DNA of 45,179 nt from Armatimonadota bacterium. Its GTDB lineage: Bacteria > Armatimonadota > Zipacnadia > JAUWAU01 > JBHIEF01. Made by a program: the position numbers and the translations under genes. The stretch is from assembly GCA_046760465.1 (NCBI GenBank), contig JBHIEF010000002.1, forward strand, positions 1-45,179, read 5' to 3'. Positions 24,051 through 41,743 of the stretch are shown piece after piece; position 1 is the stretch's first letter; each line of letters opens with the position of its first letter. The notes below the pieces were generated by a model. It was not told the origin of the DNA. It saw only the letters and a program-made list of their open reading frames with translations, and searched no databases.

Positions 24051-24383
24051 TGCTCAAACACCTACTCGAGGCGGACCGGCGGCCGCCCGGTCTGATGGAG
24101 GAGCTCTCGGTAGCCCACAGCGACGGCCACGATACCGGCCTTCGACGCCTGCTCACGGCCATCCTCTAGACAGGGGCAAACGGGCTGGGCTGAAGCGGGA
24201 AGCGGACAGCGCGACATGCGTCAGGCGGGGCGTTACCTGCCGTGCGATGGGAAGGGAGGCAGCCGTGGCGGCACACTGCCCGAGCGCCGCTCACGTGTCG
24301 GCTCGATCGGCGCACGAAGATGGGCCGACCTGCCGGCGCTCTCTTCTGCGTCAGAGACGGCCGCTGTGCACCTAGCGTACTTT

Positions 24384-25688
24384 CTAGTCCCTCGGAGTCG
24401 GCGTGGCCGGCGCGGTCTTGGTGCCGGGCCTGCGCATGCCCCCGTAGAAGAACACGTCGGGGGCCGCTCCGCCTCCGCCCATGGGGGCGACCATCCCTCC
24501 CGGCGCGCGGCGAGGCTCGATGCCCGGTATGGGCGGCGTCTCATTCGCCTGTGTGGTGGTGTCCTCCGGGACTCCCAAGGTCAGCATTACCGCGACCGCA
24601 CACGACTCAGCGGCCGTCTCGAGCCCAAAGGCCTGCGGCGCAACGGCCATCCGGCGTCTCGCGCCCCGCTCAGCAAGCTGGTACAACGCGTCCACGGCAG
24701 CCGTCTGGCCCTCGGGCTGAGGCCGCCAGATCAACAGCGTGCGCTGACCGGCGGCGAGGGGCACGGAGGTGGTCAGGACCGTCTTGATCAGCACCGGCGG
24801 ACCGACGAGGGTGTGGATGGTGTCGTCGTACTTGCCTCCGCCGAGGGTGTTCCGGGTCAGCGTCACGTCCACCGTTGGGCCCTCAACCGGGCCGCTCGGA
24901 GCCAGAGCAACCGTGTAGCCCTCCTTGTCGGCCAACTCAACGCGCCGGTACAAATCCTCCTCTACCCGTTCCAGGTAGTAGCGGGGCCGATCCTCGGGCC
25001 AGGCGAACTCGAAATCCCGCTGGGGCCAAGTCTGGGCGTTGCCCTCGATCACCGGCCGAAGGTAAGCCACTTGCTGCCGAGCGGCGCCCTGGCGCATTTG
25101 GCCGATGGTGTCCAACTGCGGCGCCAGGATAGTGGTCAGCCCAGCCACGGCGTCGCGCGTGGTCTTGGCTCCCGTCGGGTTCAGGCCGAGAGGCCCGGGC
25201 GGCAGCCAGAGCAGATTCGCAGTCGGCGGCGCGACTACTCCGCCCTCCTCGACCTGGGGCAAGGCCCCACGTGTCTCGGGCGGCTCCCGGGTCGGCAGTG
25301 TCGGAAGCCTCAGCGCGCGCGCCGCCATGGCAGCGTTGTTGTACTCGAGAGACAGCCAGGCCGCAGTGGCCGGGTCGCCAAGCGTGAAGACCGCAGGCCC
25401 GCCCCAGGGCGTGCCGCTGAGCAAGGCCACCTCGACCGTGATGGTGTCCGGCTCGTAGGCGGGCGCCGTATCCTCGGGCGCGACCGGCGTATCGGCGGGC
25501 CGCCCGGCCCCCCATTCGAAGTAGAACCCGGCCGCCGGCGGCGCCTGGGCTGGCTCGTCAGCGACGGGTCCCTCGCCCGCTGCTGCCGGCTGCGCGGCGG
25601 CCGCTGCCGGCAATGCGGCCAGCATGGCGGCGGCCAACAGCTCGGCGAAACACCAGCGCCTCTGGCGCAGTTGAGATGAAGTTGACAT
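24384..25688 (-). CDS. Secreted protein of unknown function, third gene of the ECF sigma operon
   Basis: ATG 25688 is preceded by GGAGGAGGGAG. The signal is MSTSSQLRQRRWCFAELLAAAMLAALPAAAAAQ. A Pro/Ala-rich linker, then a globular region, then a Gly/Met/Pro-rich tail follow. I recognise no family motif. The antisense 487-aa ORF 24216..25679 is Arg/Gly-rich and rejected. Confidence 0.65.
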   Translation of the reverse strand: MSTSSQLRQRRWCFAELLAAAMLAALPAAAAAQPAAAGEGPVADEPAQAPPAAGFYFEWGAGRPADTPVAPEDTAPAYEPDTITVEVALLSGTPWGGPAVFTLGDPATAAWLSLEYNNAAMAARALRLPTLPTREPPETRGALPQVEEGGVVAPPTANLLWLPPGPLGLNPTGAKTTRDAVAGLTTILAPQLDTIGQMRQGAARQQVAYLRPVIEGNAQTWPQRDFEFAWPEDRPRYYLERVEEDLYRRVELADKEGYTVALAPSGPVEGPTVDVTLTRNTLGGGKYDDTIHTLVGPPVLIKTVLTTSVPLAAGQRTLLIWRPQPEGQTAAVDALYQLAERGARRRMAVAPQAFGLETAAESCAVAVMLTLGVPEDTTTQANETPPIPGIEPRRAPGGMVAPMGGGGAAPDVFFYGGMRRPGTKTAPATPTPRD

Positions 25689-25740
25689 GGGTTCTCCCTC
25701 CTCCATCTACGTTTCCCGTGACCTGCACAGGCTCCCGGCC

Positions 25741-26361
25741 CTAGCCCTCCGGCTGGGCCGCGAGTCTGGCCGGCCGGACCTCGCGCACCAACTTGGGGGC
25801 CACAGGCGGCGGCGAGGCGTTCAGGTGAATAACCACCGGCTCCAGCTTCACCGGCGGCGGCTTGGCCTCGGGGCTACTGCCTTCACGGTCGCGCTCCACG
25901 TAGACGTAGCGCGTCTTGAAGACCGGCACCTCTTTCTCCACCACGCGCTCCACGGGCACCTCGACCGTCCTCTCGATCACCTTGGGCACGGTCACTACCT
26001 CGGTAACCGTCAACTCCCTGGGCCACGCCCAGCGCCCCACTCCCACGCCAGCGAGGAACATGACCAACGAGGCGGCGGCAAACGCGGGCACCAACTTCCG
26101 CCACACTGGGCGGATCGGCTGCCGACCAGGCGCCTGCACGGACGATGTAACCCCGGCGGCGATGCGCTCCAGGGCCTGGTCAGGGACGTCGCGCTGCACC
26201 ACGGCTCCCACCGCGTCCTGCGCCCGCTCCAGCGCCCACAGCTCCTGCCGACAGGCGGCGCACTCCGCCAAGTGTTGGTCAAGGTCGGCGTCGCCACAGA
26301 CGTCGCCGTCAATGAGCTCGTGAATCAACCTGCGTGCTTGTCTGCACCTCACGTGGCTCAT
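25741..26361 (-). CDS. Anti-sigma factor, zf-HC2 type, single-pass membrane protein
   Basis: The N-terminus MSHVRCRQARRLIHELIDGD...HLAECAACRQ contains the H-x3-C-x2-C motif. One TM segment is present (LVPAFAAASLVMFLAGVGVG). The extracytoplasmic part is Val/Glu/Pro-rich. ATG 26361 is directly preceded by GAGGAGG. It lies immediately downstream of, and overlapping, the ECF sigma gene. Confidence 0.8.
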   Translation of the reverse strand: MSHVRCRQARRLIHELIDGDVCGDADLDQHLAECAACRQELWALERAQDAVGAVVQRDVPDQALERIAAGVTSSVQAPGRQPIRPVWRKLVPAFAAASLVMFLAGVGVGRWAWPRELTVTEVVTVPKVIERTVEVPVERVVEKEVPVFKTRYVYVERDREGSSPEAKPPPVKLEPVVIHLNASPPPVAPKLVREVRPARLAAQPEG

Positions 26362-26941
26362 CCTCCTCGAGGTAGTCCGCCAGCAACTCCCGCAGCTTCC
26401 GCCGGGCGCGATGCAGGTGGGCCTTGGCCGTGCCCACCGCACACCCCATCGCCTCGGCCGTGCTAACCAGGTCCATGTCCTCCAGTGCGAAGAGCGTTAT
26501 AGCCGCCCGCTGGCGCGGCGGCAAGGCCCGCAGGGCCTTGCGCACCTCTGTCTCCAGGTGATTTGCCTCCGCATACTGGGCAGGTCCGTCGGCGGCGGGC
26601 CGCGGGGCGACGGTGGCCGCCGAGCTGGTCCTGCGGGCATCTCGCCTGTGTCTGCGCAGGCTGGACAGGGCGCAGTTGACGGTGATCCGCCGCATCCAGT
26701 CCACGAAGCGATGCCTGCCGTCGAAGCTGTCCATCGCCCGGTAGGCCCGCACGAACGCCTCTTGCGCGGCGTCCTCGGCCTCCTCGCCGTCGCCGAGGAT
26801 CGCGTAGGCCACGCGATAGACTCCTCGGCGATGGCGCCGCAGAAGCTGCGCGAAGGCACCTGCGTCGCCTCGTCGGCACCGGCCGGCCAGCCTGCTGTCC
26901 TCATCGAGCACGGAGCCGCGGCCCGCACTGGGAGCGCTCAT
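26309..26941 (-). CDS. ECF (group 4) sigma-70 family RNA polymerase sigma factor
   Basis: Region 2 reads GDAGAFAQLLRRHRRGVYRVAYAILGDGEEAEDAAQEAFVRAY...FVDWMRRITVN. Region 4 reads LPPRQRAAITLFALEDMDLVSTAEAMGCAVGTAKAHLHRARRKL. Confidence 0.9.
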   Translation of the reverse strand: MSAPSAGRGSVLDEDSRLAGRCRRGDAGAFAQLLRRHRRGVYRVAYAILGDGEEAEDAAQEAFVRAYRAMDSFDGRHRFVDWMRRITVNCALSSLRRHRRDARRTSSAATVAPRPAADGPAQYAEANHLETEVRKALRALPPRQRAAITLFALEDMDLVSTAEAMGCAVGTAKAHLHRARRKLRELLADYLEEDEPREVQTSTQVDSRAH

Positions 26942-26981: not shown

Positions 26982-27102
26982 TGAGGCGGCAGTGTCGGCC
27001 GCCACCTGGCGGCAGGGAAGCCCAGGACCCAACGAGAAGGGCGCACTCAACGCAAGTGGCGCAGCGGTGTGCCATCTCGGTCGGCGTACAGGAGAGAGAG
27101 CA

Positions 27103-30100
27103 ATGCCGCGAAGACTGCGGGAGTGTGCGCTGGCTGCCGCCGTCCTGCTCTGTGCAACGGAGCTAAGCGCCGCGCCCAACCTGGTTGGCAACAGCGGCTT
27201 CGGGGACGGGTTAACCGGCTGGGAGGTTGAGCTGCGGGGGGAATGGGGCAAGCAGGCCGACCAGTCCAAGATCGTAGCTGTGGCCGCCGATGCTGACGCC
27301 GGCAGGCCTGCCTTGAGGGTGGACACCACGCCGCTGAACCCGGGGCGGCAGATCACCGACGAGCTGCGGGTCTGGCAGCCACCGAAGTACACCGTTCTGG
27401 TGACCCAGAAGGTGCCCGGCGTCGAGCCCCGCTCGTGGTATCTGGCCAAGTTCCACACCAAGTCGCCCGGTGTGGCCATAGATGAGGGGCTGGAGCTGCT
27501 CTGCGACATCCAGCCCTGGCCGCTTCGCACCTATGGCGAGAGCGAGGAGGAGTCGCACTGGAAGGCCATTCACCCGTGGGAGCGGCGGCTGTTCCTCCCG
27601 CAGGCCCTCATCGCCGACGGTCAATACCACGAGTACGTGCTTCTCAAGCAGACCTACTCCAAGACGGACACGCTGGAGGTCGGTGTACGCATTCGCGCGC
27701 CCTGGACGGGCGTGCTCATGCTCGGCCACGTCGAGTTGACCAAGGTGGACCCCGACGACGACATGACCAAGATGGAGAAGCTGCTGGCGATGCGCGGGGC
27801 AAAGCCGATTAGGAAGGTCCGCGAGCTCAGTCGCGAGACCATGCTGGTCGACAACGGGCAGCCCGCCGGCGCCATCTTGATCCCAGAGTTGGCCGACTAC
27901 AGACCCCTGGGCACGAAGATCCAGGCGAGGATCGAGGAGCTTACCGGAGCCAGGCTGCCCGTCGTGACGAGCCTCGAGGAGGTGCCGAAGGGGGGCTCGA
28001 TCATCGCCCTCGGCTCCATGATGAAGAACGACCTGGTGGCGCGGCTGCACTTCAACCGCTACGTGAGGGTAGACGCTGCCTCGCCGGGGCCCGGCGGGTA
28101 CGTCATCTGGACCGTGGCCGAGCCGTACGGTCTCGAGCTGGGGCAGAACGTGGTCGTCGTCGCGGGCAGCGACCCGGCGGGGAAGTCGGCAGCAGTCGAG
28201 GCCTTCTGCCGCTTGCTTAAGGCGGACGGCAGGACCATCGAGCTGCCGTACCTACATACGGTCTTCCCCAAGCGGACCATAAAGCCCGAGGACCGCGAGG
28301 TGCCCAGGGGCGAGTGGGGCTTCGACATAGACCGCAACAGGTGGGCGGGCTTCTCCAAGTGGTACCTGCCCAAGTGGCTGGAGACCGGCGATCTCGAGGT
28401 GGCCGAGCTGGCCCGCAAAGAGGTACTGATGGTCGCCGACCGCTACCTGGAGGACCCGTACTTCCAGACGGCCTGGGATACCTACGAGGTTGGCTGGGCC
28501 TGGGATTCCCTGGAGGAGGCGCCGGTCTTCTCGGACGCAGATCGCCTCAAGATCACCAACGCGCTGCTGGCGTATCTGCACATGCGCCCACAAGAGACCA
28601 GCGACTGGAGCCGTATGGTGCCGCGGCTCGCGCAGAACCCGACCTGGAACCACCAGGCCAAGGGGCTGTCAGGCGTCTACACGACGGGCAGGTATTTCAG
28701 GCGCTTCTATCCGGAGGAAGACGCCCGCTACGACTACTACCTCAGCGCAGCGCGCAACGCCTTCGAGCAGCAGGCGCTCTACTCCAAGCCGCAGGAGAAC
28801 TCCGGCAACTACTGGCTGATCACCATGCGCTTCGCCCTCTCCTACTACCTGGGAGAGTGGGACATGACCTTCTTCGAGAACGGGGCCCTACGCCGCTATG
28901 CCCAGTACTTCGCGACCGTCTGCAACAACAAGGGATGGCTATCCGGCTTCGGCGACACCTACTACTGCTATCACGGTGCGGCGCCGAGGGTGATCTCGGG
29001 CACGGGGATAGGGGACCCCTCGCTGGCCTTCTGGTACTACAAGGACGGCCGCATCCTGTGGTGGCTGGAGCACTGCAACTTCGAGCGATACGAGCCGCTG
29101 TACCATCAGGACGTCGAGCCCATCGAGTGGCGGGAGTTGCTGGGCGTGAAGGTGACGCCCCTGGAGCGTGGGCTCTACGATAGGCGCACCCGCCTGGCAC
29201 TGTGGGGGTCCGGCGGCAGCGCCACCGACAGCCCGGTGGGGGAGGTGGCGTATGAGGAGACCTTCGACAAGATCTCCTTCCGCGACTCCTGGGACCCCGA
29301 GGGGCAGTACATGCTGCTGGAGGGCAACGGGCGAGGCATACACTCCGGAAACGCCACCAACCAGATCTGCAAGCTGAGCCTACTGGGAGAGGATCTGCTG
29401 ATCGGAAGCTGCTACAGTCAGAACAACATACGCCGCAACGACAGCGTTGTGGTGGTCAAGGACGCGCACATTGATGACCCGGAGGTGAAGGGCCAGGCGC
29501 CGTGGCCCTTCGCCCAGTGGGCGTCGCTGAGGCGCAAGTACCCCTGCTACGCGGCGCTTGAGGCCCTGGCCGACCTGCCCCGCACGGGGTTCTCGCGCAC
29601 GTCGCTTCGCGACTATCAGGGCACCGACTGGCACCGGAACATCTTCTGGCTCAAGGGGCAGTACTTCGCGCTCATAGACGAGGTGGTGGCGAGAGAGCCA
29701 GGCACCTACTACGTAGAGTCGAACTTCAAGACGTGCCCGAAGGCCAAGCAGAACTATCCGAAGCTAACGCCGCGGAGGTGGCGGCTGCTCGAGGGCGACC
29801 GTGGCGTGGCGGTGTCGCTGGACACCACGCCCGGACCAACGAACCTCTACATCCTGACGGACGGTTCCGCCAAGATCGTGACGGATACGGCGTCGCACCA
29901 GTACATCACGGCCGAGATGATCCGACAGGTGCACGAGCGTCGGCAGCTGGCGCCGGGGGAGCAGGTCAGCTATATCAACCTCTTCTACGGCGATCGGCCC
30001 GCCGCAAGGGCCAACTACCGCATCGAGCGGCTTGGGGCTAGCGAGGCGCTCGTCTATCAGAACGACCAGCCGACTGCATATCTGGGGTGCGGCCAAGGCC

Positions 30101-30303
30101 CACAGAGCGCGGCCATTCTGCCCGTCGCGGCGAAGATGTTCCTGTTGACAAAGGGCATGCTGGCGGTCGTGGACGGCACTTCCGCAGGGGACTTCTTTAG
30201 CAGCACGGAGCCGGTCTCGCGGGAGATCGAGCTGCCGACTGAACGAGTTGACGGCATTCTCGCCAAGCTCAGTGGCGCCCTTGAGGCCAAGGCGCGCCCC
30301 TGA
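27103..30303 (+). CDS. Large secreted multidomain protein of unknown function (CBM-like N-terminus, GH20b/GH67N-like alpha/beta domain, possible heparinase II/III-like toroid and sandwich)
   Basis: ATG 27103 follows GGAGAGAGAG. The signal is MPRRLRECALAAAVLLCATELSAAP. The module NLVGNSGFGDGLTGWE is CBM4/9-like. The segment AGAILIPELADYRPLGTKIQARIEELTGARLPVV...IIALGS...GGYVIWTV...VVVVAGSDPAGKSAAVEAFCRLL matches the small alpha/beta domain found at the N-termini of GH20, GH67 and DUF4838 proteins. My assignment of the C-terminal part is weak. Confidence 0.7.
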   Translation: MPRRLRECALAAAVLLCATELSAAPNLVGNSGFGDGLTGWEVELRGEWGKQADQSKIVAVAADADAGRPALRVDTTPLNPGRQITDELRVWQPPKYTVLVTQKVPGVEPRSWYLAKFHTKSPGVAIDEGLELLCDIQPWPLRTYGESEEESHWKAIHPWERRLFLPQALIADGQYHEYVLLKQTYSKTDTLEVGVRIRAPWTGVLMLGHVELTKVDPDDDMTKMEKLLAMRGAKPIRKVRELSRETMLVDNGQPAGAILIPELADYRPLGTKIQARIEELTGARLPVVTSLEEVPKGGSIIALGSMMKNDLVARLHFNRYVRVDAASPGPGGYVIWTVAEPYGLELGQNVVVVAGSDPAGKSAAVEAFCRLLKADGRTIELPYLHTVFPKRTIKPEDREVPRGEWGFDIDRNRWAGFSKWYLPKWLETGDLEVAELARKEVLMVADRYLEDPYFQTAWDTYEVGWAWDSLEEAPVFSDADRLKITNALLAYLHMRPQETSDWSRMVPRLAQNPTWNHQAKGLSGVYTTGRYFRRFYPEEDARYDYYLSAARNAFEQQALYSKPQENSGNYWLITMRFALSYYLGEWDMTFFENGALRRYAQYFATVCNNKGWLSGFGDTYYCYHGAAPRVISGTGIGDPSLAFWYYKDGRILWWLEHCNFERYEPLYHQDVEPIEWRELLGVKVTPLERGLYDRRTRLALWGSGGSATDSPVGEVAYEETFDKISFRDSWDPEGQYMLLEGNGRGIHSGNATNQICKLSLLGEDLLIGSCYSQNNIRRNDSVVVVKDAHIDDPEVKGQAPWPFAQWASLRRKYPCYAALEALADLPRTGFSRTSLRDYQGTDWHRNIFWLKGQYFALIDEVVAREPGTYYVESNFKTCPKAKQNYPKLTPRRWRLLEGDRGVAVSLDTTPGPTNLYILTDGSAKIVTDTASHQYITAEMIRQVHERRQLAPGEQVSYINLFYGDRPAARANYRIERLGASEALVYQNDQPTAYLGCGQGPQSAAILPVAAKMFLLTKGMLAVVDGTSAGDFFSSTEPVSREIELPTERVDGILAKLSGALEAKARP

Positions 30304-31873: not shown

Positions 31874-32299
31874 GTGAACTGCCGACTCGAACATGCCAAT
31901 ATCACGGTGCTGGACATTGACCGGGCCGTGGAGTTCCTGACCACAGCCTTCCCGCACTTCAGAGTGCGCGGTGGCGGCCAGAGCGATCACGGCACCTGGC
32001 GGCGGAAGTGGCTCCACGTGGGAACGGACTCCACGTACGTGGCCCTGGAGCAGACGACCATCGCCGCCAAGGCCGAGCGCAGGCCGGAGCGGGAGACGGG
32101 CATCAACCACGCGGGCTTCGAGGTGGATGACGTAGCTGACATCCTGCGCAAGATGGAGGCGGCCGGATACAAGGGCACCATGGCAGAGCCGCACCCGTTC
32201 CGCAAGAGGCTGTACGTTACCGACGCGGATGGGATCACGTGGGAGTTCGTCGAGTACCTCTCCGACGATCCGGCCGAGCGCAACGACTACTCACTCTGA
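31874..32299 (+). CDS. VOC / glyoxalase-bleomycin-resistance family protein
   Basis: 141 aa. LEHANITVLDIDRAVEFL and INHAGFEVDDVADILRKMEAAGY match the paired beta-alpha-beta-beta-beta modules of this family. GTG start follows AAGGAGGAG. Confidence 0.75.
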   Translation: MNCRLEHANITVLDIDRAVEFLTTAFPHFRVRGGGQSDHGTWRRKWLHVGTDSTYVALEQTTIAAKAERRPERETGINHAGFEVDDVADILRKMEAAGYKGTMAEPHPFRKRLYVTDADGITWEFVEYLSDDPAERNDYSL

Positions 32300-32352
32300 C
32301 GGCGGCCGGGCCGAGACCGGAGGGGTAGCCAGGGCTGGGGTGGTGGCGCCGG

Positions 32353-33168
32353 TCACGCTACCTCGGAGCCGACGCCTCGCCGCACGCCCTGCCGCTCCAG
32401 GCGGTCAATCACCTGCCCTGCGCAGATCAGCAGGGCTGCCTGATGTCCCGTCGGGGCAGATAGCGAGACCCAAGCCGCGCCCTCTCCCAGGGTCTCCATG
32501 ACCCTCACCACTACTGGCTGAGGCGGCTCCAGGCCCTGCAACGTTGTCTTGAGCTCGTCGGCGTCCAGCCAGTTCTCTGGTCTCGCGGACGGTGAGCGGA
32601 TGTCAACTGAGCGTGGGGAGATGGTGCAGGAGAGCCAGCCGTCGAGGGCAGATACGGTCACGGGCTCCTCGGAAGCGGCGCGGGCGGCCATCGCTTCCTG
32701 TGCGAGGGCAGAGGGGGCCTTCTGAGACCCGGCCATCTGGCCGTGGGACCTTGGCGAGAGGACCGAGAGCGCCCGTCTCCATAGGCTGGGCGCGGGGGCC
32801 TCGTCGGCCGGCGGCTCGACGGGTTCGTGCTCCAACTCCTCCGGCTGCTCCTGGACCCGCAGCTCAAGCCAGGTACGCCCGACGCGGATCCTGTCCCCCG
32901 GCCTGACGACGGTGGGCTCAGTCAACCGCTGCTGGCCCAAGTAGGTGCCGTTGGTGCTGCCCAGGTCCTCCAGGACCCACCCGTCACCGTCTTGCTGGAG
33001 GCGAGCATGATCCCTGGAGACACAAGCGTCCCACGACAGGCACACGTCGTTGGTGCAGCGGCGGCCAATGCTGACCACCGGTGCGGCCAGCGACACCTCG
33101 CCACCGGCCATCTCGTGATCTAGCACCACCAGCGTGCATTCAACTGGAGAACGCCTCGGCCCCCCCAT
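32353..33168 (-). CDS. FHA-domain protein with an unassigned C-terminal domain shared with the upstream phosphatase
   Basis: FHA core is VVSIGRRCTNDVCLSWDACVSRDHARLQQDGDGWVLEDLGSTNGTYLGQQRL...GDRIRVG. I chose the start at ATG 33168, which follows GGAGAAGG at a 4-nt spacing. The track start is GTG 33249, which has no SD. Confidence 0.8.
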   Translation of the reverse strand: MGGPRRSPVECTLVVLDHEMAGGEVSLAAPVVSIGRRCTNDVCLSWDACVSRDHARLQQDGDGWVLEDLGSTNGTYLGQQRLTEPTVVRPGDRIRVGRTWLELRVQEQPEELEHEPVEPPADEAPAPSLWRRALSVLSPRSHGQMAGSQKAPSALAQEAMAARAASEEPVTVSALDGWLSCTISPRSVDIRSPSARPENWLDADELKTTLQGLEPPQPVVVRVMETLGEGAAWVSLSAPTGHQAALLICAGQVIDRLERQGVRRGVGSEVA

Positions 33169-33255
33169 TGGACCTTCTCCTGCACGGCGCCGCTCGCGGG
33201 CGCCATGCCCGCGGTCGGGCATTTGCCGGCCGCGCCCCGGCGCCGTCACACGCGT

Positions 33256-34209
33256 CTACAGACCAGACAGCAGCACTTCCTCGTACACGCCGCCTCGCAC
33301 GAGGAGGTCCACTATCTGGCCCGTGGCGATCAACAGGCCGGCCTGCTTGCCGGGCGGGCAGGCGACCGTGATCCACGCCTCGGTCTCCTCGCCCAAGGTC
33401 TCCGTGAGCGTCACCGTCACTTCGTTGTCGGCCCGGAAGGTCCTCAAGGCGCCCTTCAGATCCTCGACCTTGGGGCCGCCTCCCGGAGCCGAGGGCAGCG
33501 ACCGCACGTCCACGGCCGACCCGTTGTCGCCCCACCTGAGATAACCTGTCGCGCGCTCTCTCGCCATCTTGGCCGTCCCTTCTTTCCGCAGCCACGTCTC
33601 CTGCTGCGCGGCGGGAGTCAACTCCGAATCACCGATTCTCGTGTCCGCTTCCTGTGCTGCATCACCGTCGTCGCCCGCGCTCGGCGCAGCCACCGAGCGG
33701 ACGGCGGCCTGCGCGGCCGCCCAGGCGAACACCGCCTCCACCTGCTCTTCGCTCTCGATCGAGCCGGGACGCTGCCGCCGCACCAGCGAGATGGCCTCCC
33801 GCGGGTCCGTGCCCTGGCTGACGAGGTAACAGGCTATGACGGTCCCGGTGCGGCCGAACCCGCCTATGCAGTGGACTGCGACCTTGCCGCCCCGGCGTAG
33901 CTCGGCCTCCACGGCCGACACGAACTTCCGTATCTGCTGCCGGCTGGGCGCGGACATGTAGTCAACCGGCAGGTGCAGGTGCCGCATGTCGGCCCGCTCG
34001 ACCTCGTCCAGGTCAGGAAGCTCCGGCACGACCGAGACTAGAAGCGTGACCCCCGCCTCACGCAGCCTGCGCAAGTCCCGTGCCGAAGGCAGGGCGGTGG
34101 CTGCGATCAGATCGGGGACGATCCAGTTCACGGTTGCTCGACGTGGGAAGAGTAACACTGACCTGTGCTCCACCGAGATGATAGTGCGAAGCGGGCCGCA
34201 CGGCCCCAA
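33256..34209 (-). CDS. Cys-based dual-specificity / PTP-type protein phosphatase with an unassigned C-terminal domain shared with the downstream FHA protein
   Basis: The P-loop VAVHCIGGFGRTGTVIACYL fits HCxxGxxR(S/T) within a DSP-like core of about 150 aa. The start is uncertain: the track gives TTG 34209, while GTG 34158 has GGAG 9 nt upstream. Confidence 0.8.
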   Translation of the reverse strand: MGPCGPLRTIISVEHRSVLLFPRRATVNWIVPDLIAATALPSARDLRRLREAGVTLLVSVVPELPDLDEVERADMRHLHLPVDYMSAPSRQQIRKFVSAVEAELRRGGKVAVHCIGGFGRTGTVIACYLVSQGTDPREAISLVRRQRPGSIESEEQVEAVFAWAAAQAAVRSVAAPSAGDDGDAAQEADTRIGDSELTPAAQQETWLRKEGTAKMARERATGYLRWGDNGSAVDVRSLPSAPGGGPKVEDLKGALRTFRADNEVTVTLTETLGEETEAWITVACPPGKQAGLLIATGQIVDLLVRGGVYEEVLLSGL

Positions 34210-34625
34210 CTGCGTCCCGCGCCCACATCCGGCCTTGAGAGGGGGCGCATTCGGGTTCTACCACGTCAGCGCCCGCAGCCCTACGGCGACGACCGCGCGT
34301 CTGGACGCTCGGGGCTCCGCAGGCCGAAGCCCCACGGAGCCGACGGGCAGACCCGGGCTGACGACCCGCCCCGCAGGCGCCGCCAGACGCGGATGGCGTG
34401 TGCGTCCCAACCGATGCTGCCGGGATCCTACGTCCGCTGGGGTGAATGCTGCCTCGTGGGATACTGCTGCCGCAGCGACGTGGCGTGGTTACTGGTCCAG
34501 CGTTTTGGCTACTTCGCCGCGGGCCCCGGCCTTCCTGCCTAGGGACGGTGACGAATCGGATGGCCCCTTGGCAGTGGCCCGCTCTCCACCGGGGAGGATG
34601 CCACGCCCGCCCGCAGAAGTCAAGG

Positions 34626-34659
34626 GCAGAGGCGAGCGGACGCGGCCCCTCGCCTCTGC
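34626..34659 (+). promoter_or_regulatory. Perfect 11-bp stem hairpin abutting the SD of the downstream oxidoreductase gene
   Basis: GCAGAGGCGAG (34626..34636) pairs perfectly with CTCGCCTCTGC (34649..34659) across a 12-nt loop. AGGAGG starts at 34661 and the ATG is at 34673. Confidence 0.35.
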
Positions 34660-34672
34660 TAGGAGGACCGAC

Positions 34673-35779
34673 ATGAGCATCAGCGTGGGCATCGTGGGTC
34701 TGGGGCAGTTCGGCACGCACTTCGTCAAGCTCTTCAGGGACCACCCGGACGTTGGTCGCCTGGCGCTGTGCGACCTGCGCGCCGACCGGGTGGCAGCATG
34801 CGCAGAGGAGTTCGGCATCGAGGAGGCCTACGGCAGCCTCGACGAGGCCTGCGCCGCAGACCTCGATGCCCTGGCCATCATCACGCAGCCGTGGCACCAC
34901 GCGGCACACGCCATACAGGCACTGGAGGCCGGCAAGCACGTCTACTGCGCGGTGCCGCCGGCCACGGCAGCCACGGGCGAGGAAGCGTTGGAGCAGTGCG
35001 ATCACCTGGTGAACACAGTCGAGCGTACCGGACAAACCTATATGCTGGGGGAGACGACCTTCTTCCGGCGCGAGACCATCTACTGCCGGGCGCGAGCGGC
35101 CGCGGGCGACTTCGGGGAGTTCGTGTATGCAGAGGGCGAGTACTTCCACGACATGTCACACGGGCTGTACGAGGTGGCGGAGAAGCGGTGGGGGGAGCAG
35201 TGGTCGCGGCACAAATCGGGCGGCGCACCCATGCACTACCCCACCCACTCCACCTCGGGCGTCGTCTCGGTAATGGGCGCGCATATGACGGAGGTCTCCG
35301 CGCAGGGCTATATCCACCCGAACGACGACTGGTTCCGCGCCGACACGGTCTCGGGCAACCTCTTCAGCAACGAGGTCGCGCTGTACCGCATGAGCAACGG
35401 CGCCCTGGCGCGAATATGCGAGTTTCGACGCATCGGCCACCCCGGCCGCGAGGGCTTTCGCATCTACGGAACCGAGGGGTCGTTCGAGAACGACGTTTCC
35501 GGCGCGAAGTGGGCCACCAAGAGCGGCTGGGAGCCGGTGGACCTCAGCAGCGTCTGCGAGCCGCTGCCACCGGCGTTGGCCGCCGACCTCGGCGGCCACG
35601 GTGGGTCACACGCCTACCTAGTGCACGAGTTCGTGGACGCGTGCACCCGCCCGCGGCTCCCGCGCATCAACGTGTGGGAGGCGATGCGGTACCTGGCGCC
35701 CGGCATCGCGGCCCACCAGTCGGCTCTGCGGGATGGAGAGGTCGTCAAGGTCGCCGACTGGGGCGACGCGCCCGAGTAG
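34673..35779 (+). CDS. Gfo/Idh/MocA family oxidoreductase, cytoplasmic
   Basis: ATG 34673 follows AGGAGG at a 6-nt spacing. The Rossmann N-terminus is MSISVGIVGLGQFGTHFVKLF. Track ORF residues 33986..34672 are Arg/Pro-rich and antisense to the phosphatase, so spurious. Confidence 0.85.
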   Translation: MSISVGIVGLGQFGTHFVKLFRDHPDVGRLALCDLRADRVAACAEEFGIEEAYGSLDEACAADLDALAIITQPWHHAAHAIQALEAGKHVYCAVPPATAATGEEALEQCDHLVNTVERTGQTYMLGETTFFRRETIYCRARAAAGDFGEFVYAEGEYFHDMSHGLYEVAEKRWGEQWSRHKSGGAPMHYPTHSTSGVVSVMGAHMTEVSAQGYIHPNDDWFRADTVSGNLFSNEVALYRMSNGALARICEFRRIGHPGREGFRIYGTEGSFENDVSGAKWATKSGWEPVDLSSVCEPLPPALAADLGGHGGSHAYLVHEFVDACTRPRLPRINVWEAMRYLAPGIAAHQSALRDGEVVKVADWGDAPE

Positions 35780-35871: not shown

Positions 35872-35900
35872 TTGACAGGGGAGACAACATGCGCTAGTAT
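35872..35900 (+). promoter_or_regulatory. Near-consensus sigma70-type promoter of the marR-efflux operon (TTGACA-N17-TAGTAT)
   Basis: TTGACA lies at 35872..35877 and TAGTAT at 35895..35900, separated by exactly 17 nt. It opens a strikingly AT-rich island in an otherwise GC-rich window. A second -10-like TATAAAT at 35932..35938 would give a nearly leaderless marR transcript. Confidence 0.55.
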
Positions 35901-35935
35901 ATTTCGGAGTACCAAATATTCGAATACCGAATATA
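35898..35935. promoter_or_regulatory. Candidate MarR operator: nested inverted repeats
   Basis: TATATTTCGG (35898..35907) faces CCGAATATA (35927..35935), an inverted repeat with one extra T. A perfect 10-bp palindrome TATTCGAATA lies at 35917..35926. The site sits between or over the -10 elements and before the marR ATG at 35950. Confidence 0.5.
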
Positions 35936-35949
35936 AATGGCAGCCCATC

Positions 35950-36438
35950 ATGGGTACGTCGCGGGGACAGCTCGTTGAGGAGATCGCCGACCTGCTGCCG
36001 GCGATCATGCGCTGCCTGTTTGCGGGGAGGGGCGAGTCGGCGCCGCATCTAGATATCACCGTCGGTGAGCTCCGCTGCCTGGCCACTATCGGCCACCTGG
36101 GGAAGCCCTCCATGACGGACCTCTCCGACCGGCTGTACCTTCAGCCCAGCACGGTCACCGGACTGGTGGACGCCCTGGTAGACCGAGGCCTTGTGGACCG
36201 GTATGCCGACCCCGAGGATCGGCGCGTGGTGCGGGTGGGGCTGACGCCCGAGGGCAGGCGGCGCCGAGCGCAGCATCGGACGGCGAAACGCCGGCGACTG
36301 ATGGCCGCGCTGGCAGATGTCAACAGCGACGAGCTACGCAGCATCCGCGCCGCTCTACACACGCTGCACGCAGCGGCTCTGCGCGCTGCCGAGACCCGAG
36401 AGCGCGCGGACGGGCCTGCCGAGGAGGAGAACGAATGA
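35950..36438 (+). CDS. MarR family transcriptional regulator
   Basis: Winged-helix region is LTVGELRCLATIGHLGKPSMTDLSDRLYLQPSTVTGLVDALVDRGLVDRYADPEDRRVVRVGLTPEGRR. The first in-frame ATG is at 35950. The track ORF start, TTG 35872, is the -35 hexamer itself. Confidence 0.85.
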   Translation: MGTSRGQLVEEIADLLPAIMRCLFAGRGESAPHLDITVGELRCLATIGHLGKPSMTDLSDRLYLQPSTVTGLVDALVDRGLVDRYADPEDRRVVRVGLTPEGRRRRAQHRTAKRRRLMAALADVNSDELRSIRAALHTLHAAALRAAETRERADGPAEEENE

Positions 36439-37829
36439 GTCGAAGCAGTCGCTGGGGATGGGCACAGGGCGCACCTGGCCTGGTTCTGCTGGTCTCGGCG
36501 ATGATGGCCGCGGCTCCGCTGCCCGCCCAGGAAGACGGCCGGCCTCCGTCGCTGCCCGAGGCGTTCTCAGACGGCCCTCTGACCATTGACGAGGCCGTGG
36601 CCATCGGCCTGGCCCGCCACCCGGTGGTGTCAATGGCCCGGCACGGCGTGAAGGCAGCGCGCGGCGGCACTATGCAGACGCGCAGCCAATTCCTGCCCTC
36701 TCTGGGCTTCCGCTCCGACTACACTCGATCCATGAGCACCGGCGTGGCCATCGTGGGGGGCGTGCCGGTGGGGGGAACGACCAGGCGGACGGCCACTCAG
36801 TACGCAACGAGCTTCCAGGCACAGCAGTTGCTGTTTGACTTCGGCCGCACCAGCGACGAGTACCGCCAGAGCCGCCTGGTGGAGAGGGCGACGGTCCACC
36901 AGCTCGCGCAGACCGAGGACGACGTCAGGGACAACGTTCGGCAAGCCTTCGTCGCGCTGCTGGCCAACAAGGAGCTGCTGGAGGTGGCGCGCTACGGGGA
37001 ACGGCTTCAGGAGGAGACCCTGGCGCTGACCATGGGGCAGTTCGAGGGAGGCCTGGTGCCGGAGGCCGACGTGGCCAAGGCCGCCAGCGCTCTGGCCGCG
37101 GCGCGGCTGGAGGTGACCGCTGCGGAGAACGCCGTGGCGCAGACGCAGGTGGCCCTCAACGAGACGATGGGCCTTGACATCCGTACTCAGTACGAGGTCG
37201 CGGCCCCCCCGGCGCTAGAGCAGCCGCCGCCGGCCCTCGACGAACTGCTGGCCGTCGCCATGGCGCGGCGGCCCGAGATCCTGGCGGCGCAGGCCGACGC
37301 CCAGGCGGCCGCGGCGGGCCTGCGGGCGGCCAAAAAGGGCCATGCGCCCGGCCTCAGCGTGGCCGCGTCGTACGGGTGGCGCGAACCGGAGTTCCCGCCA
37401 TCGCTGACGCAGTGGAACGTCGGGGTGGCACTCAACCTGAACGTCTTCGACGGCGCCTTCACCGAGGGGCGCAGGAAGCAGGCACAGGCCGACCGCAACG
37501 CGGCGCGAGACGCGCTGTACATGACTCAGCAGCTCGTGGCGGAGGAGACTGCCCAGAGCCTGCTCGACCTGCGGACGGCGGAGGAGCAGATCACTGCCGC
37601 TGAGGCCAGCGTTGCCAGCGCCGAGGAGGACCTGCGCCTGGCCCAGGGACGCTACCTCGCCCAGGTGGGGATACTGCTGGAGATACTGGACGCGCAGGCG
37701 GCGCTGATCGCAGCTCGGACCGCGCTGGCACAGGCTCGTTTCGCGTACGCATCAGCCCGCTACGCGCTCGAGCGCGCCATCGGCGCCCCCCTGGCGGAGG
37801 TCGGCGCGGCAACCGAGGAGGCGCCGTAG
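36435..37829 (+). CDS. TolC-family outer membrane efflux protein
   Basis: 464 aa with a signal peptide (GLVLLVSAMMAAAPLPAQE). It has the two-repeat OEP architecture with long Ala/Leu/Gln/Glu helices. An ATGA overlap links it to the marR stop, and GAGGAGGAGA lies upstream. Confidence 0.8.
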   Translation: MSRSSRWGWAQGAPGLVLLVSAMMAAAPLPAQEDGRPPSLPEAFSDGPLTIDEAVAIGLARHPVVSMARHGVKAARGGTMQTRSQFLPSLGFRSDYTRSMSTGVAIVGGVPVGGTTRRTATQYATSFQAQQLLFDFGRTSDEYRQSRLVERATVHQLAQTEDDVRDNVRQAFVALLANKELLEVARYGERLQEETLALTMGQFEGGLVPEADVAKAASALAAARLEVTAAENAVAQTQVALNETMGLDIRTQYEVAAPPALEQPPPALDELLAVAMARRPEILAAQADAQAAAAGLRAAKKGHAPGLSVAASYGWREPEFPPSLTQWNVGVALNLNVFDGAFTEGRRKQAQADRNAARDALYMTQQLVAEETAQSLLDLRTAEEQITAAEASVASAEEDLRLAQGRYLAQVGILLEILDAQAALIAARTALAQARFAYASARYALERAIGAPLAEVGAATEEAP

Positions 37830-37916
37830 CGCGACAAAGGCCACCCTCCGTCGGCCAACCGGCGGGGCGGCTACAGTCGTCACCCGCAGCGCGGGTAGGT
37901 ACTAGAGGAGCGTCCT

Positions 37917-39800
37917 ATGAGAAGGCGACTGAGACGCGTGCGTTGGCTGCTGCCGGTCGTGGTGGTGGCAGGAGTGGTCGCATTCTACTTCTGGCGGCGC
38001 GCAGCGGGCGACGAGGCCGTGCCGCTGAGGACGGCCAAGGTAGAGCGGCGCGACGTGGTGGTCGCGGTGTCGGCGGTCGGCGTGCTGGAGCCCCTCACCA
38101 CGGTGGAGGTCAAGGCCAACGTGGCCGGCGAGATCGTAGAGCTGGCGGTGGACCGCGGCGACTGGGTCGCCGCGCAAGACCTCATCGCGCGGGTTGACCC
38201 CACGGAGACCCGCAGTGCCTATGACCAAGCGCAGGCAGATGTGGCGGCGGCCCTCGCCCGCGTGCAGGAGAGCATGGCGGAGCTGGAGCGACAGGAGAGG
38301 CTGACGCCCGCCCAGATCCGCGCCGCCGAGGACGCGCTGGAGGCGGCCTCCGCCCGCACCAAGCAGGCGGAAAGCACGCTGGCCTACCAGCGCAAGACCA
38401 CGGCGGCCGACATACGACGGGCCCAGGAAGCCTTGGCAGCGGCGGAGGCCAGACTCCACCAAGCCGAAGCCCTGGCCAAGGCCCAGCCGGAGCTGACGCA
38501 GGCGGCCATCGAGCAGGCGACCGCCGAACTCCGAGCCGCAGAGGAGGCCCGCAAGCGGCTCGTGAACGCCACGCAGCCGCAGGAGCGAGCGACGGCCAAG
38601 TCCCAGATCGAAGCCGCCAGGATAGCCCGAGACAACGATGCCAAGGCCCTGAAGCGACTGCGCGACCTCCACGCCCAGGGATTCGTTGCCCAGCAACAGG
38701 TCGAGGACGCCGAGAAGGCCCTGGCCGACTCTGACGACCGCTTCGAGAGCGCCAAGGCAGCGTACGACACCCTCGACCAGAAGCACGCCACGGAGCGCAA
38801 GGAGGCGGAGGCCACGGTGGAGCGGGCCCAGGCGGCCCTGAGCTCGGCGCGCACGGGCGAGGTGGAGGACCAGGTTGCCCAACAAGAGCTGGAAGCGGCG
38901 AAGGCGGCGGTCCGCGAGGCGGAGGCGGCCCTGGCCGCCGCAGAGGCCAGCAAGCAGCAAGATGAGGTGAGGTTGCAGGAATTGCGGGCCGCCAAGGCCG
39001 CGGCCGACGAGGCGCGCTCGCAGCTCGCCGTGGCCAAGGCTGGCGCGCTCCAGGCCCAAGTCTCCGCCCATCAGGTCGCGCAGGCGAGGGCCCAGACCCG
39101 CCGCTCAGCGGCCCAGTTGGAGAACGCCCGTAAGAACCTGGCCTACACCACCATCCGCGCGCCGCGCAGCGGCCTGGTCATAGACCGGTTCGTGGAAGAG
39201 GGCACGGTCATCACCTCCGGCCGCTCCGCCATCACGCAGGGGACCAGCATCGTCACCCTGGCAGACGTCAGCCGCATGTTCGTCCTGGCCGAGGTAGATG
39301 AGGCAGATATCGGCCAGGTGGCGCTGGGGCAGCTCGTGGCCATCGAGGTCGAGACCTTCGAGGATGAGGTCTTCCCCGGCAAGGTAACGCAGATCTACCC
39401 GCGCGGCGAGGAGATCGAGAACGTGACCATCTTCCGGGTCCGCATAGAGCTGGACGATCCGGACCCCAGGCTGCGTCCCGGCATGACGGCGGAGGCCTCC
39501 ATCATGATCGAGCGGAGCGACGACGTCCTGGCCGCGCCCAACGAGGCCTTCTACCAGCAGCAGGGGAAGACGTTCGCGGAGGTCGTCGAGGATGGGGAGA
39601 TAGAGGAGGTCGAGGTGGAGACGGGCATAGCCAGCTTCGAATGGACCGAAGTCAAGGCCGGGCTGGAGGAGGGCCAGGAGGTAGTCATCGGCAGCGCCGG
39701 GCCCTGGATGGGGCAGGAGCAGCCGCCCGGTGGCGGGGGTTCCGAGGACCGGCGGCGACAGCAGCGCCGCATGATGTTCATGGGCGGAAGGAGGCGCTGA
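37917..39800 (+). CDS. HlyD/MacA-family periplasmic adaptor (membrane fusion protein) with a greatly extended coiled-coil hairpin
   Basis: N-terminal TM segment is WLLPVVVVAGVVAFYF. The split lipoyl halves are VEVKANVAGEIVELAVDRGDWV and TIRAPRSGLVIDRFVEEGTVI. About 300 residues of Ala/Glu/Gln/Arg heptad-like sequence separate them. Beta-barrel and MP domains and a basic Gly/Arg tail follow. Confidence 0.85.
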   Translation: MRRRLRRVRWLLPVVVVAGVVAFYFWRRAAGDEAVPLRTAKVERRDVVVAVSAVGVLEPLTTVEVKANVAGEIVELAVDRGDWVAAQDLIARVDPTETRSAYDQAQADVAAALARVQESMAELERQERLTPAQIRAAEDALEAASARTKQAESTLAYQRKTTAADIRRAQEALAAAEARLHQAEALAKAQPELTQAAIEQATAELRAAEEARKRLVNATQPQERATAKSQIEAARIARDNDAKALKRLRDLHAQGFVAQQQVEDAEKALADSDDRFESAKAAYDTLDQKHATERKEAEATVERAQAALSSARTGEVEDQVAQQELEAAKAAVREAEAALAAAEASKQQDEVRLQELRAAKAAADEARSQLAVAKAGALQAQVSAHQVAQARAQTRRSAAQLENARKNLAYTTIRAPRSGLVIDRFVEEGTVITSGRSAITQGTSIVTLADVSRMFVLAEVDEADIGQVALGQLVAIEVETFEDEVFPGKVTQIYPRGEEIENVTIFRVRIELDDPDPRLRPGMTAEASIMIERSDDVLAAPNEAFYQQQGKTFAEVVEDGEIEEVEVETGIASFEWTEVKAGLEEGQEVVIGSAGPWMGQEQPPGGGGSEDRRRQQRRMMFMGGRRR

Positions 39801-39803
39801 GGG

Positions 39804-40529
39804 GTGGCGCTCATTGAGGTAAGCGACGTAGAGAAGGTGTTCCGCACGGGGACCATCCAGGTGGCAGCGCTGCGCGGCGTGAACCTGACGGTGGAGGAAG
39901 GCGAATTCGTCAGCATCATGGGGCCCTCGGGGTCCGGCAAATCCACTCTCATGCACATCCTCGGGTGCCTGGACCGGACCACCAGCGGCCGCTACGTCCT
40001 GGACGGCATTGACGTCGCTGAGCTCGACGATGACGATCTGGCAAACGTGCGCAACGAGAAGCTGGGATTCGTCTTCCAGGCCTACAACCTGCTGCCCCGG
40101 ACGACCGCCCTGGCCAACACGGAGCTGCCGCTGCTCTATGGTCGCCGGCGGGGGGAGCGGCGCCAACGTGCCCTCCAGGCGCTCCAGCGGGTAGGTTTGC
40201 AGGAGCGTCTGCAACACGTGCCCTCAGAGCTCTCCGGGGGCGAACAGCAGCGTGTGGCCATCGCGCGTGCCCTGGTCAATGACCCACGCATACTCCTGGC
40301 AGACGAGCCGACTGGGAACCTGGACAGCCGGACGGGCGAGGAGATACTGGGACTGCTACAGGACCTCAACGGCCGAGGCACGACCGTGGTGATGGTCACC
40401 CACGACGAACACGTCGCTGCGCATACGCAGCGCATCGTCCGGCTCTTGGACGGGAAGGTCGAGCGCGACGAGCTGGTCGCGGAGCCCATCGGGGCCGGAC
40501 CGGCGAGCGAGGAGGGGGAAGTCCCTTGA
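39804..40529 (+). CDS. ABC transporter ATP-binding protein (MacB/LolD-type, COG1136-like)
   Basis: Walker A is GPSGSGKST, the signature is LSGGEQQRVAIARAL, and Walker B is ILLADEPTGNLD. GTG start lies 3 nt after the adaptor stop. Confidence 0.9.
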   Translation: MALIEVSDVEKVFRTGTIQVAALRGVNLTVEEGEFVSIMGPSGSGKSTLMHILGCLDRTTSGRYVLDGIDVAELDDDDLANVRNEKLGFVFQAYNLLPRTTALANTELPLLYGRRRGERRQRALQALQRVGLQERLQHVPSELSGGEQQRVAIARALVNDPRILLADEPTGNLDSRTGEEILGLLQDLNGRGTTVVMVTHDEHVAAHTQRIVRLLDGKVERDELVAEPIGAGPASEEGEVP

Positions 40530-41743
40530 ACCCACTGGAAGCCGTCCGAGTGGCGCTGATCGCTCTGAGGGCCAACAAGCTGCGGTCTGGCTTGACCATG
40601 TTGGGCATCATCATTGGCGTTGGCTCAGTCATCACCATGATCGCCATCGGCCGCGGCGCCAGCGTTGACGTGCAGGAACGCATCCAGGCGATGGGCACCA
40701 GGCTGCTCACCGTCTGGCCGGGCCAGGCGCGCCGTGGCCGTCTCTGGGGCGGCGTGGGCAGCCAGGACACGCTGGAGCTTCAGGATGCCGACGCCATCTC
40801 GCGCAAGGTGGAGGGCGCGCTGCGGGTGGCGCCGCACGTGACCGGGTCGGCCCAGGTCAAGTGGGGCAACCGCAACACGAACACCTCCATCATCGGGTCC
40901 ACGCCCGACTACGTCACGGTCAACAACCACAAGGTAGAGAGCGGGCGCTTCTTCACGGAGACGGAGCTGCGCGGCTCTCGGCCCATCTGCGTCGTGGGCA
41001 CCACCTTGGTGGACAACCTCTTCGGGCGCACCGACCCCGTGGGCCAGCGCATCCGCATCAAGAACATCCCCTTCGAGGTCATTGGCGTGCTTCGCGAGAA
41101 GGGCGGGGCCAGCCACTGGCGCGATCCCGACGACCTCATTGTGGTCCCCGTGTCGGTGGCCATGCGCCGTCTGTTTGGGAAGGACCACGTGGACCGCATC
41201 TACGTCGCCGCCATCGAGGGACGCCCGCTGTGGGAGACGGCCGACGATATCACCAAGCTGATCAGGCGCCGCCACCGCATCCGCTCGGACGACGAGGACG
41301 ACTTCAACGTGCGCACCCAGACCGAGATTCTGGAGACCTTCACGCAGACCTCTCGCACCTTCACCATCCTGCTGGCGAGCATAGCCGCCGTCTCGCTGAT
41401 GGTGGGCGGCATCGGCGTGATGAACATCATGCTCGTCTCCGTGACCGAGCGGACCAGGGAGATCGGCATCCGCAAGGCGGTCGGAGCCAAGAGGCGGGAT
41501 ATTCTGGCGCAGTTCCTCATCGAATCGCTGGCCCTGTGCCTGATAGGCGGGCTCATTGGCGCCGCCCTGGGCGCCGGCGGCGCCGCGCTCCTGTCCAACA
41601 TGGCCGGGTGGCGCACCATCGTCACTCCCGATTCGATCATACTGGCCTTCTCCTTCTCGGCCGCCGTCGGCATCGGCTTCGGCATATACCCCGCCCAGAA
41701 GGCGGCCAAGCTGGACCCCATCGAGGCACTGAGGTACGAGTAG
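40526..41743 (+). CDS. ABC transporter permease, MacB-type (MacB periplasmic core domain plus FtsX four-TM domain)
   Basis: The N-terminus ALRANKLRSGLTMLGIIIGVGSVI is followed by a large periplasmic domain. The FtsX block is REIGIRKAVGAKRRDILAQFLIESLALCLIGGLIG and the C-terminus is PAQKAAKLDPIEALRYE. The TTG start overlaps the ATPase stop (TTGA). Confidence 0.85.
   Translation: MNPLEAVRVALIALRANKLRSGLTMLGIIIGVGSVITMIAIGRGASVDVQERIQAMGTRLLTVWPGQARRGRLWGGVGSQDTLELQDADAISRKVEGALRVAPHVTGSAQVKWGNRNTNTSIIGSTPDYVTVNNHKVESGRFFTETELRGSRPICVVGTTLVDNLFGRTDPVGQRIRIKNIPFEVIGVLREKGGASHWRDPDDLIVVPVSVAMRRLFGKDHVDRIYVAAIEGRPLWETADDITKLIRRRHRIRSDDEDDFNVRTQTEILETFTQTSRTFTILLASIAAVSLMVGGIGVMNIMLVSVTERTREIGIRKAVGAKRRDILAQFLIESLALCLIGGLIGAALGAGGAALLSNMAGWRTIVTPDSIILAFSFSAAVGIGFGIYPAQKAAKLDPIEALRYE

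Follow-up and report, generated by a model that had tools for sequence, protein, structure and literature searches.

A candidate docking domain shared by neighboring FHA and Cys-phosphatase genes in an Armatimonadota bacterium

The kinase-associated protein phosphatase (KAPP) of Arabidopsis is an FHA-targeted phosphatase in which FHA and PP2C domains are part of one polypeptide, while in bacteria the two are found in FHA/PP2C operons, such as FhaA-FhaB-PstP of Mycobacterium tuberculosis and Fha1-PppA of Pseudomonas aeruginosa. Two other known systems depend on the assembly of paralogous domains. In the stressosome, the C-terminal STAS domains of RsbR and RsbS, encoded by neighboring genes, co-assemble behind variable N-terminal heads and include a STAS-only subunit, and in eukaryotic signaling scaffolds the PB1 domains, of ubiquitin-like beta-grasp fold, heterodimerize as type A and type B paralogues. 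Bacteria also produce isoforms by internal initiation, among them CheA-S, ClpB-79, and IF2-beta. Here, we describe two adjacent genes on the minus strand of a 45,179-nt stretch of DNA (the window; contig JBHIEF010000002.1 of assembly GCA_046760465.1, positions 1 to 45,179 of the forward strand) from an Armatimonadota bacterium of the class Zipacnadia. One encodes a Cys-based dual-specificity phosphatase (DSP) and the other an FHA-domain protein, and these separate polypeptides end in related copies of a single C-terminal domain that may dock one onto the other.

A C-terminal domain common to both genes

A previous sequence-only reading of the window had reported a Cys-phosphatase and an FHA gene as same-strand neighbors, 87 nt apart, whose products end after low-complexity linkers in the same module of about 95 residues, alignable with one gap. 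The open reading frames (ORFs) and the Pfam matches (PTP-SAK, DSPc, and FHA) bore this out. Between the copy behind the phosphatase (A) and that behind the FHA domain (B) there were 33 identities in 87 positions (38%) with one gap (E = 2e-13, BLASTP with composition-based statistics). The significance of the alignment, which the same reading had left to a shuffling control, was clear, given that the Smith-Waterman score was 139 against 26.5 ± 4.9 in 5,000 shuffles (z = 23), none of which reached it. The 87-nt spacer also holds, with the FHA start taken at ATG 33168. The FHA ORF in the ORF list runs from 32353 to 33249 on the minus strand, but the start is most likely this ATG, preceded by the Shine-Dalgarno run GGAGAAGG, and gene calling in an independent assembly gave a near-identical FHA protein of 271 aa (P0002).

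The module, described as private in the sequence-only reading, is also present in proteins other than this pair. An earlier word-indexed search with a two-sequence profile recovered one fragment only (P0001), and it took an exhaustive HMMER search with the profile, covering 1.84 billion representative proteins, to reveal the family, with 35 matches, of which ca. 30, each a cluster at 50% identity, are genuine. In every genuine match the domain is located at the extreme C terminus, after a low-complexity acidic or Pro/Ala-rich linker, and a tabulation of its N-terminal partners gave three kinds only: FHA (ca. 15 clusters), DSP phosphatase, and a Cys/His-rich domain of ca. 85 residues. A few short or truncated entries of the family had no partner. 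All the named genomes with the domain belong to the Armatimonadota, class Zipacnadia, and the domain is confined to a few uncultured lineages.

No described family accounted for the domain. A Pfam search with all 30 members gave no recurrent family (ACT_7 appeared in one member at E 0.11), neither NCBIfam nor PADLOC had a match for it, and the best hit of a PDB sequence search with the 30-sequence profile had an E value of 0.14. HIV capsid proteins, which had appeared in the PDB at E ~0.005 with the two-sequence profile (sharing strings such as GHQAA and ETL.E.AAW), were gone with the 30-sequence profile and were discarded as a chance match. The AlphaFold2 (AF2) model of the A-type domain, built from the 30-sequence alignment, was confident (predicted local distance difference test [pLDDT] 90.9; predicted template modeling score [pTM] 0.83), with the order ββαββαβ. 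Foldseek comparison of this model with the PDB and BFVD gave nothing significant (all E ≥0.008 and TM ≤0.55). The first of the nonsignificant neighbors was the C-terminal domain of aIF2alpha (1yz7; prob 0.96, TMq 0.45), followed by Prp/YsxB, PII, and SUI1. These ββαββαβ plaits (eIF1/SUI1, the aIF2alpha C-terminal domain, Prp/YsxB, and PII) have the same order of secondary-structure elements as the domain but no sequence signal and no functional residues in common with it. A common promiscuous domain, which would have made its presence in both genes unremarkable, was likewise not found, as ACT, STAS, PilZ, and PII were matched neither by Pfam nor by the PDB sequence search or Foldseek. The literature yielded nothing on the domain or on operons that combine FHA with DSP in this way. 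Given the lack of a significant match in Pfam, NCBIfam, PADLOC, PDB sequences, or Foldseek, the domain is a new small family, undescribed in the libraries searched, and the view of the module as an unnamed family stands at the level of both sequence and fold. The residues conserved across both types are the ETLG turn, G-x-Q, LL, and a G.

The heads to which the two copies are attached are better known. That of the A-type protein matched PTP-SAK (PF22784; 2.8e-25, 89.6 bits, cut-off 27) and DSPc (PF00782; 6e-14, 52.4 bits, cut-off 33.5) in Pfam, together with Tc-R-P. The closest solved relatives of its catalytic domain were the bacterial DSP 25xa (1e-27), the archaeal Tk-PTP (5z59), and human DUSP23 (4erc), all with E values from 1e-27 to 3e-22. 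The P-loop reads HCIGGFGRTG in the window and HCVGG[ILF]GRTG in the orthologues, with the catalytic H-C-X5-R-(S/T) intact. The FHA domain matched the Pfam model (PF00498) over its full length (1-67/67; 1.8e-19, 70.3 bits, cut-off 20.7), the FhaB/FipA-like FHA model of NCBIfam being the most similar type (2.5e-25). The pThr-binding residues (SIGRR..., VSRDHARL, and STNGT), as read in the translation, are intact here and in all the B-type orthologues of this predicted pThr reader. In the FHA linker, the motif SLWRRALSVLS recurs as S[LI]WRRA[LA]SxL, GLLRRALSSL, or GMLMQALSAL in P0013, P0017, P0018, and P0024. In FHA-B proteins that are paired with an A-type protein with the Cys/His-rich head (Cys-A), the motif conserved in the linker is another one, ELV.SDLDGLETQ. 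A helix for docking or for membrane binding is possible in both cases.

Two domain types, gene order, and a nested start signal

In a neighbor-joining tree of all copies, these grouped by fusion partner and not by genome. The A-type group (GYLxW...) contained the copies linked to DSP and to the Cys/His-rich domain, 50 to 65% identical to each other, while those linked to FHA formed separate B-type clades. This clustering indicates that the duplication is old and that both types have been kept.

The order of the genes was also maintained. A phosphatase-A gene followed on the same strand by FHA-B, with spacers of 18 to 187 nt, was found in six lineages (the window and its near-identical relative L003, L002, L010, L011, L012, and L019). 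The L002 contig stops within the FHA gene, L011 is a 19-kb contig of an NCBI metagenome-assembled genome, and the L019 contig retains no more of the A gene than its final 11 codons (NIYDEVLLSNR and the stop). The genes flanking the pair differ from one locus to another (GH127, sulfatases, β-lactamase-like genes, and others), indicating that phosphatase-A and FHA-B travel as a unit. In a second arrangement, without any phosphatase in the module, Cys-A is followed by a conserved protein of ca. 100 aa and then by FHA-B (L004, which is “Candidatus Zipacnadum vermilionense” of the Armatimonadota, L016/L017, L018, and L025). Thus, the existence of a third partner and of modules devoid of phosphatase points to a general logic of FHA plus an effector, rather than specifically of a reader plus an eraser. 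Overall, each of the nine FHA-B genes for which the preceding DNA could be read had an A-type gene upstream on the same strand, while in two lineages (L007/L026 and L013-15) A-type genes appeared without FHA-B. B therefore needs A but not the reverse, which fits B docking onto A. On a 2-kb contig (L001:3-215, 524-1036), what comes after the A-type fragment P0001 is not FHA but a response-regulator gene and a PAS-domain protein.

The two additional components of the second arrangement were also new. The Cys/His-rich domain, an alternative N-terminal head on A-type proteins with the motif CxxC..FPDHxGxHY..W..LPxC..CWLCE, had no match in Pfam, NCBIfam, or PADLOC, and its AF2 model (pLDDT 90.3) gave nothing with E <1 by Foldseek against the PDB. 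The small protein (GKRYRT..LLASD..GRNTFLFRT..W.RE.D.L.PLARDEA..AFPGI.IEDA), always located after a Cys-A gene and 58 to 91% identical between lineages, was not matched by any of the same three libraries either. Neither of them was found in the window.

A second conserved feature of the A-type genes lies just before the domain. All 14 of those for which DNA was available have an in-frame ATG 6 to 8 codons (usually 7) before it, usually followed by an Ala codon, and a purine-rich, Shine-Dalgarno-like run 6 to 12 nt 5' of this ATG (GGAGG, GGGGGGA, GAAGGGA, GAGGGGA, and similar). The energy of the duplex with the anti-Shine-Dalgarno sequence ranged from −5.4 to −12.1 kcal/mol and, for 13 of the 14 genes, ranked within the top 0.7 to 8% of all codon positions in the gene concerned (median rank, 0.035). 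In the window, GAAGGGA has −7.5 kcal/mol, in the top 7% of positions. The residues encoded by the run vary (KEGTAK, EEGTIT, RGEKK, QEARL, EEDRP, and others), and the internal Met is also invariant in A-type representatives known only as proteins. B-type genes have neither an ATG nor a conserved Shine-Dalgarno sequence at the equivalent place. In every lineage head and domain form a single ORF, with linkers very different in length and sequence. The fusion is therefore genuine, and from the signal a free A-domain isoform of ca. 103 aa and ca. 11 kDa is predicted in addition to the full-length protein. A database entry of 100 aa (P0008, MAQGTRGYLSW...) is a gene call only.

Proposed docking of A and B, and its alternatives

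With moderate confidence, we interpret A and B as paralogous docking or assembly domains that would couple an FHA reader to an effector. This interpretation comes from three features of the sequences and their arrangement: the two types have remained distinct for a long time, both are strictly inherited together in the same operon, and FHA-B requires A whereas A does not require FHA-B. A, in the effector, and B, in the FHA protein, would bind each other on flexible linkers and so unite the pThr-reading FHA domain with the effector in one working complex, which in the window would be the non-covalent equivalent of an FHA-targeted phosphatase. The free, head-less A domain would either compete for B or co-assemble with it, tuning the stoichiometry of the complex. 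Both the binding of A to B and the production of the short isoform are what we infer from the conserved sequences.

Several observations weigh against this interpretation. No locus has a linked kinase or an obvious substrate gene; the sequence-only reading had noted the lack of a kinase in the window and, in agreement, a Hanks-kinase motif had no match in the six-frame ORFs of the window, L004, L007, L011, L013, or L016 (a motif check only). The A-type genes without a nearby FHA-B in two lineages imply a function of A that is independent of B. The lineages are few and not independent, and the statistics are only indicative. The residues common to A and B could equally mark a ligand or target site or the mere core of the fold. 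The start signal might be left over from an ancestral gene for the domain alone, although it persists across very diverged linkers, which speaks against a relic. Last, where Tk-PTP and 25xa have the general-acid Asp, in a P-D-F sequence ca. 30 residues ahead of the Cys, the clade (four phosphatase-A orthologues) has an invariant Tyr; the residue before this Tyr is Asp in the window and E, A, or M in the orthologues and is therefore not conserved. Loss of the general acid in protein tyrosine phosphatases slows the hydrolysis of phosphotyrosine, phosphoserine, and pThr, and Asp-to-Ala mutants are standard substrate traps. The general acid is dispensable for good leaving groups, as in the RNA triphosphatases of the same superfamily, and the substrate here may not be a phosphoprotein.

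With no conserved general acid, the role as protein phosphatase is putative and the label of eraser provisional. The sequence-only reading had proposed a module made of a phospho-reader and a phospho-eraser. What speaks for it is the conservation of the phosphatase-FHA pair, which recurs in five other lineages and in unrelated neighborhoods, with no conserved kinase or substrate gene linked to it. However, the third partner, the modules without phosphatase, and the replaced Asp make the eraser half less secure. Tentatively, the system might instead work as a lineage-specific hub and not as a simple reader/eraser pair: FHA-B would dock on any A-type effector, free A would titrate or cap it, and the phosphatase without general acid would be slow or substrate-trapping or would act on a non-protein phosphoanhydride or phosphoramidate.

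Among the alternatives to docking, the one that survives best is that A and B each bind the same third component (a small molecule, a protein, or a cellular structure) and not each other. The nearly invariant polar set E-T-L-G and G-x-Q across both types would be expected of such a site, the domain is a small alpha/beta sandwich with ligand-binding PII/GlnK and ACT-like domains among its weak Foldseek neighbors, and the A-type proteins without B also fit. Still, no structural or sequence match was significant, and distinct paralogues co-inherited as neighbors are more typical of complementary partners, so we consider a common target possible but rather doubtful.

It seems to us unlikely that the domain self-associates or folds back on its own head, gating the phosphatase site or the pThr pocket of FHA, with the adjacency of the genes due only to ancestry and co-regulation. 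A domain that is always C-terminal after a long flexible linker has the layout common for autoinhibitory or oligomerization tails, and the full-length protein could be acted on in trans by the free A isoform predicted from the same gene. However, the presence of the same A-type domain on two unrelated heads, DSP and Cys/His-rich, argues against a head-specific fold-back, and the A gene upstream of nine out of nine FHA-B genes would be left unexplained.

A conflict, toxin, or defense module, rather than housekeeping phospho-signaling, is more improbable still. The top Pfam matches of the phosphatase (PTP-SAK, Tc-R-P, and PTP-NADK) are models defined in polymorphic-toxin or nucleotide-centered conflict contexts, the absent general acid would fit a non-protein phosphoanhydride substrate, and the family is small, patchy, and restricted to certain lineages. 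Against this, neither the window proteins nor their partners had a significant PADLOC match, the neighborhood is free of mobile-element, immunity, or toxin-delivery genes (the flanks are glycan-catabolic or housekeeping and vary by locus), and the catalytic domain has its closest sequence similarity to DUSP23 and the archaeal Tk-PTP. A compositional or chance artifact, or a meaningless recent local duplication, which the G+C content of the genome (ca. 68%) and the low-complexity linkers of both proteins might have suggested, is refuted by the alignment statistics given above, the separate conservation of A and B elsewhere, and the confident fold, and we assign it practically no probability.

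Surroundings of the pair and comparison with known systems

The coordinates of the pair and of the related genes in other loci are collected in Table 1. In the window, the pair is flanked on one side by a glucuronoyl esterase and a glyoxalase-fold gene and on the other by a GFO/IDH/MocA oxidoreductase and a MarR-TolC-HlyD-ABC efflux cluster. The latter (35872-41743, plus strand), a tripartite efflux cluster of ordinary type that is not kept beside the module at other loci, consists of a MarR regulator and, after it, a TolC-like OEP, a HlyD-family adaptor, an ABC ATPase, and a permease. Between the phosphatase gene and the divergent oxidoreductase there are ca. 470 nt (34210-34678) without a convincing gene, and the orthologous phosphatase genes also have 5' gaps of 220 to 400 nt. 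An alignment of this long non-coding DNA from four phosphatase-A genes revealed no conserved element, an Rfam scan of positions 32000-35000 of the window gave only a sub-threshold snoRNA match, and a scan for consensus promoters and terminators found no sites. Upstream of the glucuronoyl esterase, three plus-strand ORFs of 1,103, 487, and 259 aa (26992-30303, 24216-25679, and 25687-26466, respectively) had no Pfam match with E ≤1e-5; the largest has a signal-peptide-like N terminus and may be an undescribed glycan-active enzyme.

Table 1. Features of the phosphatase-FHA pair in the window (start..end) and of related genes in other loci (locus:start-end)
Feature	Coordinates	Strand	Basis or remark
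Cys-phosphatase gene with A-type C-terminal domain	33256..34209	-	Longest ORF, 317 aa, TTG start; GTG 34131 is an alternative start
DSP/PTP catalytic domain, ORF residues 26-163	33721..34134	-	Pfam coordinates; alignment to Tk-PTP and 25xa
General-acid loop LHLPVDYMSAP	33940-33960	-	Alignment
P-loop HCIGGFGRTG, C(X)5R(S/T) motif	33844..33873	-	Sequence; invariant in four full-length orthologues
Shine-Dalgarno-like GAAGGGA in linker coding region	33576..33582	-	8 nt 5' of internal ATG
Internal in-frame ATG (Met-Ala...), 7 codons before domain	33565..33567	-	Predicted start of free 103-aa A-domain isoform
A-type copy of C-terminal domain (GYLRW...LLSGL, 96 aa)	33259..33546	-	BLASTP versus B copy; family profile 3e-35; AF2
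87-nt intergenic spacer, phosphatase stop to FHA start	33169..33255	-	Contains GGAGAAGG before ATG 33168
FHA-protein gene with B-type C-terminal domain, 271 aa from ATG 33168	32353..33168	-	ORF
FHA domain with canonical GR, SRxH, and NGT residues	32878..33075	-	Pfam FHA, 70.3 bits
Amphipathic motif SLWRRALSVLS in FHA linker	32755..32787	-	Recurs in orthologous FHA-B proteins
B-type copy of C-terminal domain (GWLSC...SEVA, 95 aa)	32356..32640	-	Family profile 3e-34; groups with FHA-linked copies in neighbor-joining tree
Cys/His-rich-headed A-type genes	L004:1910-2587, L007:1387-2160, L013:3922-4608, L016:7338-8057, L018:4-729		
Small conserved protein	L004:2580-3029, L007:2221-2652, L013:4907-5209, L016:8191-8493, L018:749-1177, L025:349-648, L026:1213-1641		

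The new parts are an undescribed domain family, a second novel domain (Cys/His-rich), and a conserved small protein. The reach of these findings is narrow, with the family confined to uncultured glycan-degrading lineages. All the parts are small, look soluble, and lend themselves to in vitro tests. A domain-only isoform, encoded within a longer gene, is predicted from the conserved internal ribosome-binding site and would be a clean, testable case of isoform-level regulation in bacteria. If the binding of A to B proved to be specific, the pair could serve as an orthogonal heterodimerization tag.

The coupling of FHA to a phosphatase is in itself known. As in KAPP and the bacterial FHA/PP2C operons, a pThr-reading FHA domain would be functionally coupled to a phosphatase and, as in the bacterial examples, within one operon. 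What is new is the Cys-based phosphatase, a DUSP23/Tk-PTP-like enzyme lacking the general acid instead of a PP2C, and its putative connection to FHA via paralogous C-terminal domains on separate polypeptides, with no fusion and no linked Hanks kinase. For this reason, the resemblance to KAPP would be a functional analogy only. With DUSP23/VHZ, Tk-PTP, and 25xa, the window phosphatase shares the C(X)5R(S/T) loop and an atypical-DSP core of ca. 150 aa, but the phosphatase-A clade differs from them in the Tyr that replaces the general-acid Asp, the long linker, and the additional C-terminal domain.

In the case of the short isoform, the comparison is with CheA-S, ClpB-79, and IF2-beta, in which an in-frame internal Shine-Dalgarno sequence and ATG give rise to a shorter C-terminal isoform, as predicted for the A-type genes. 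Here, however, the prediction comes from conserved sequence signals alone, and the isoform would be exactly one autonomous domain. RsbR and RsbS resemble the window pair in that adjacent genes carry paralogous C-terminal domains behind variable heads, with a head-less form that is predicted in our case, but there is no similarity to STAS in sequence or structure, and no separate gene but internal initiation would supply the head-less form. Finally, PB1 is also a small alpha/beta domain with two complementary paralogous types, and A and B, if they bind each other as proposed, could likewise join unrelated signaling proteins, albeit with a different fold topology and no homology to PB1.

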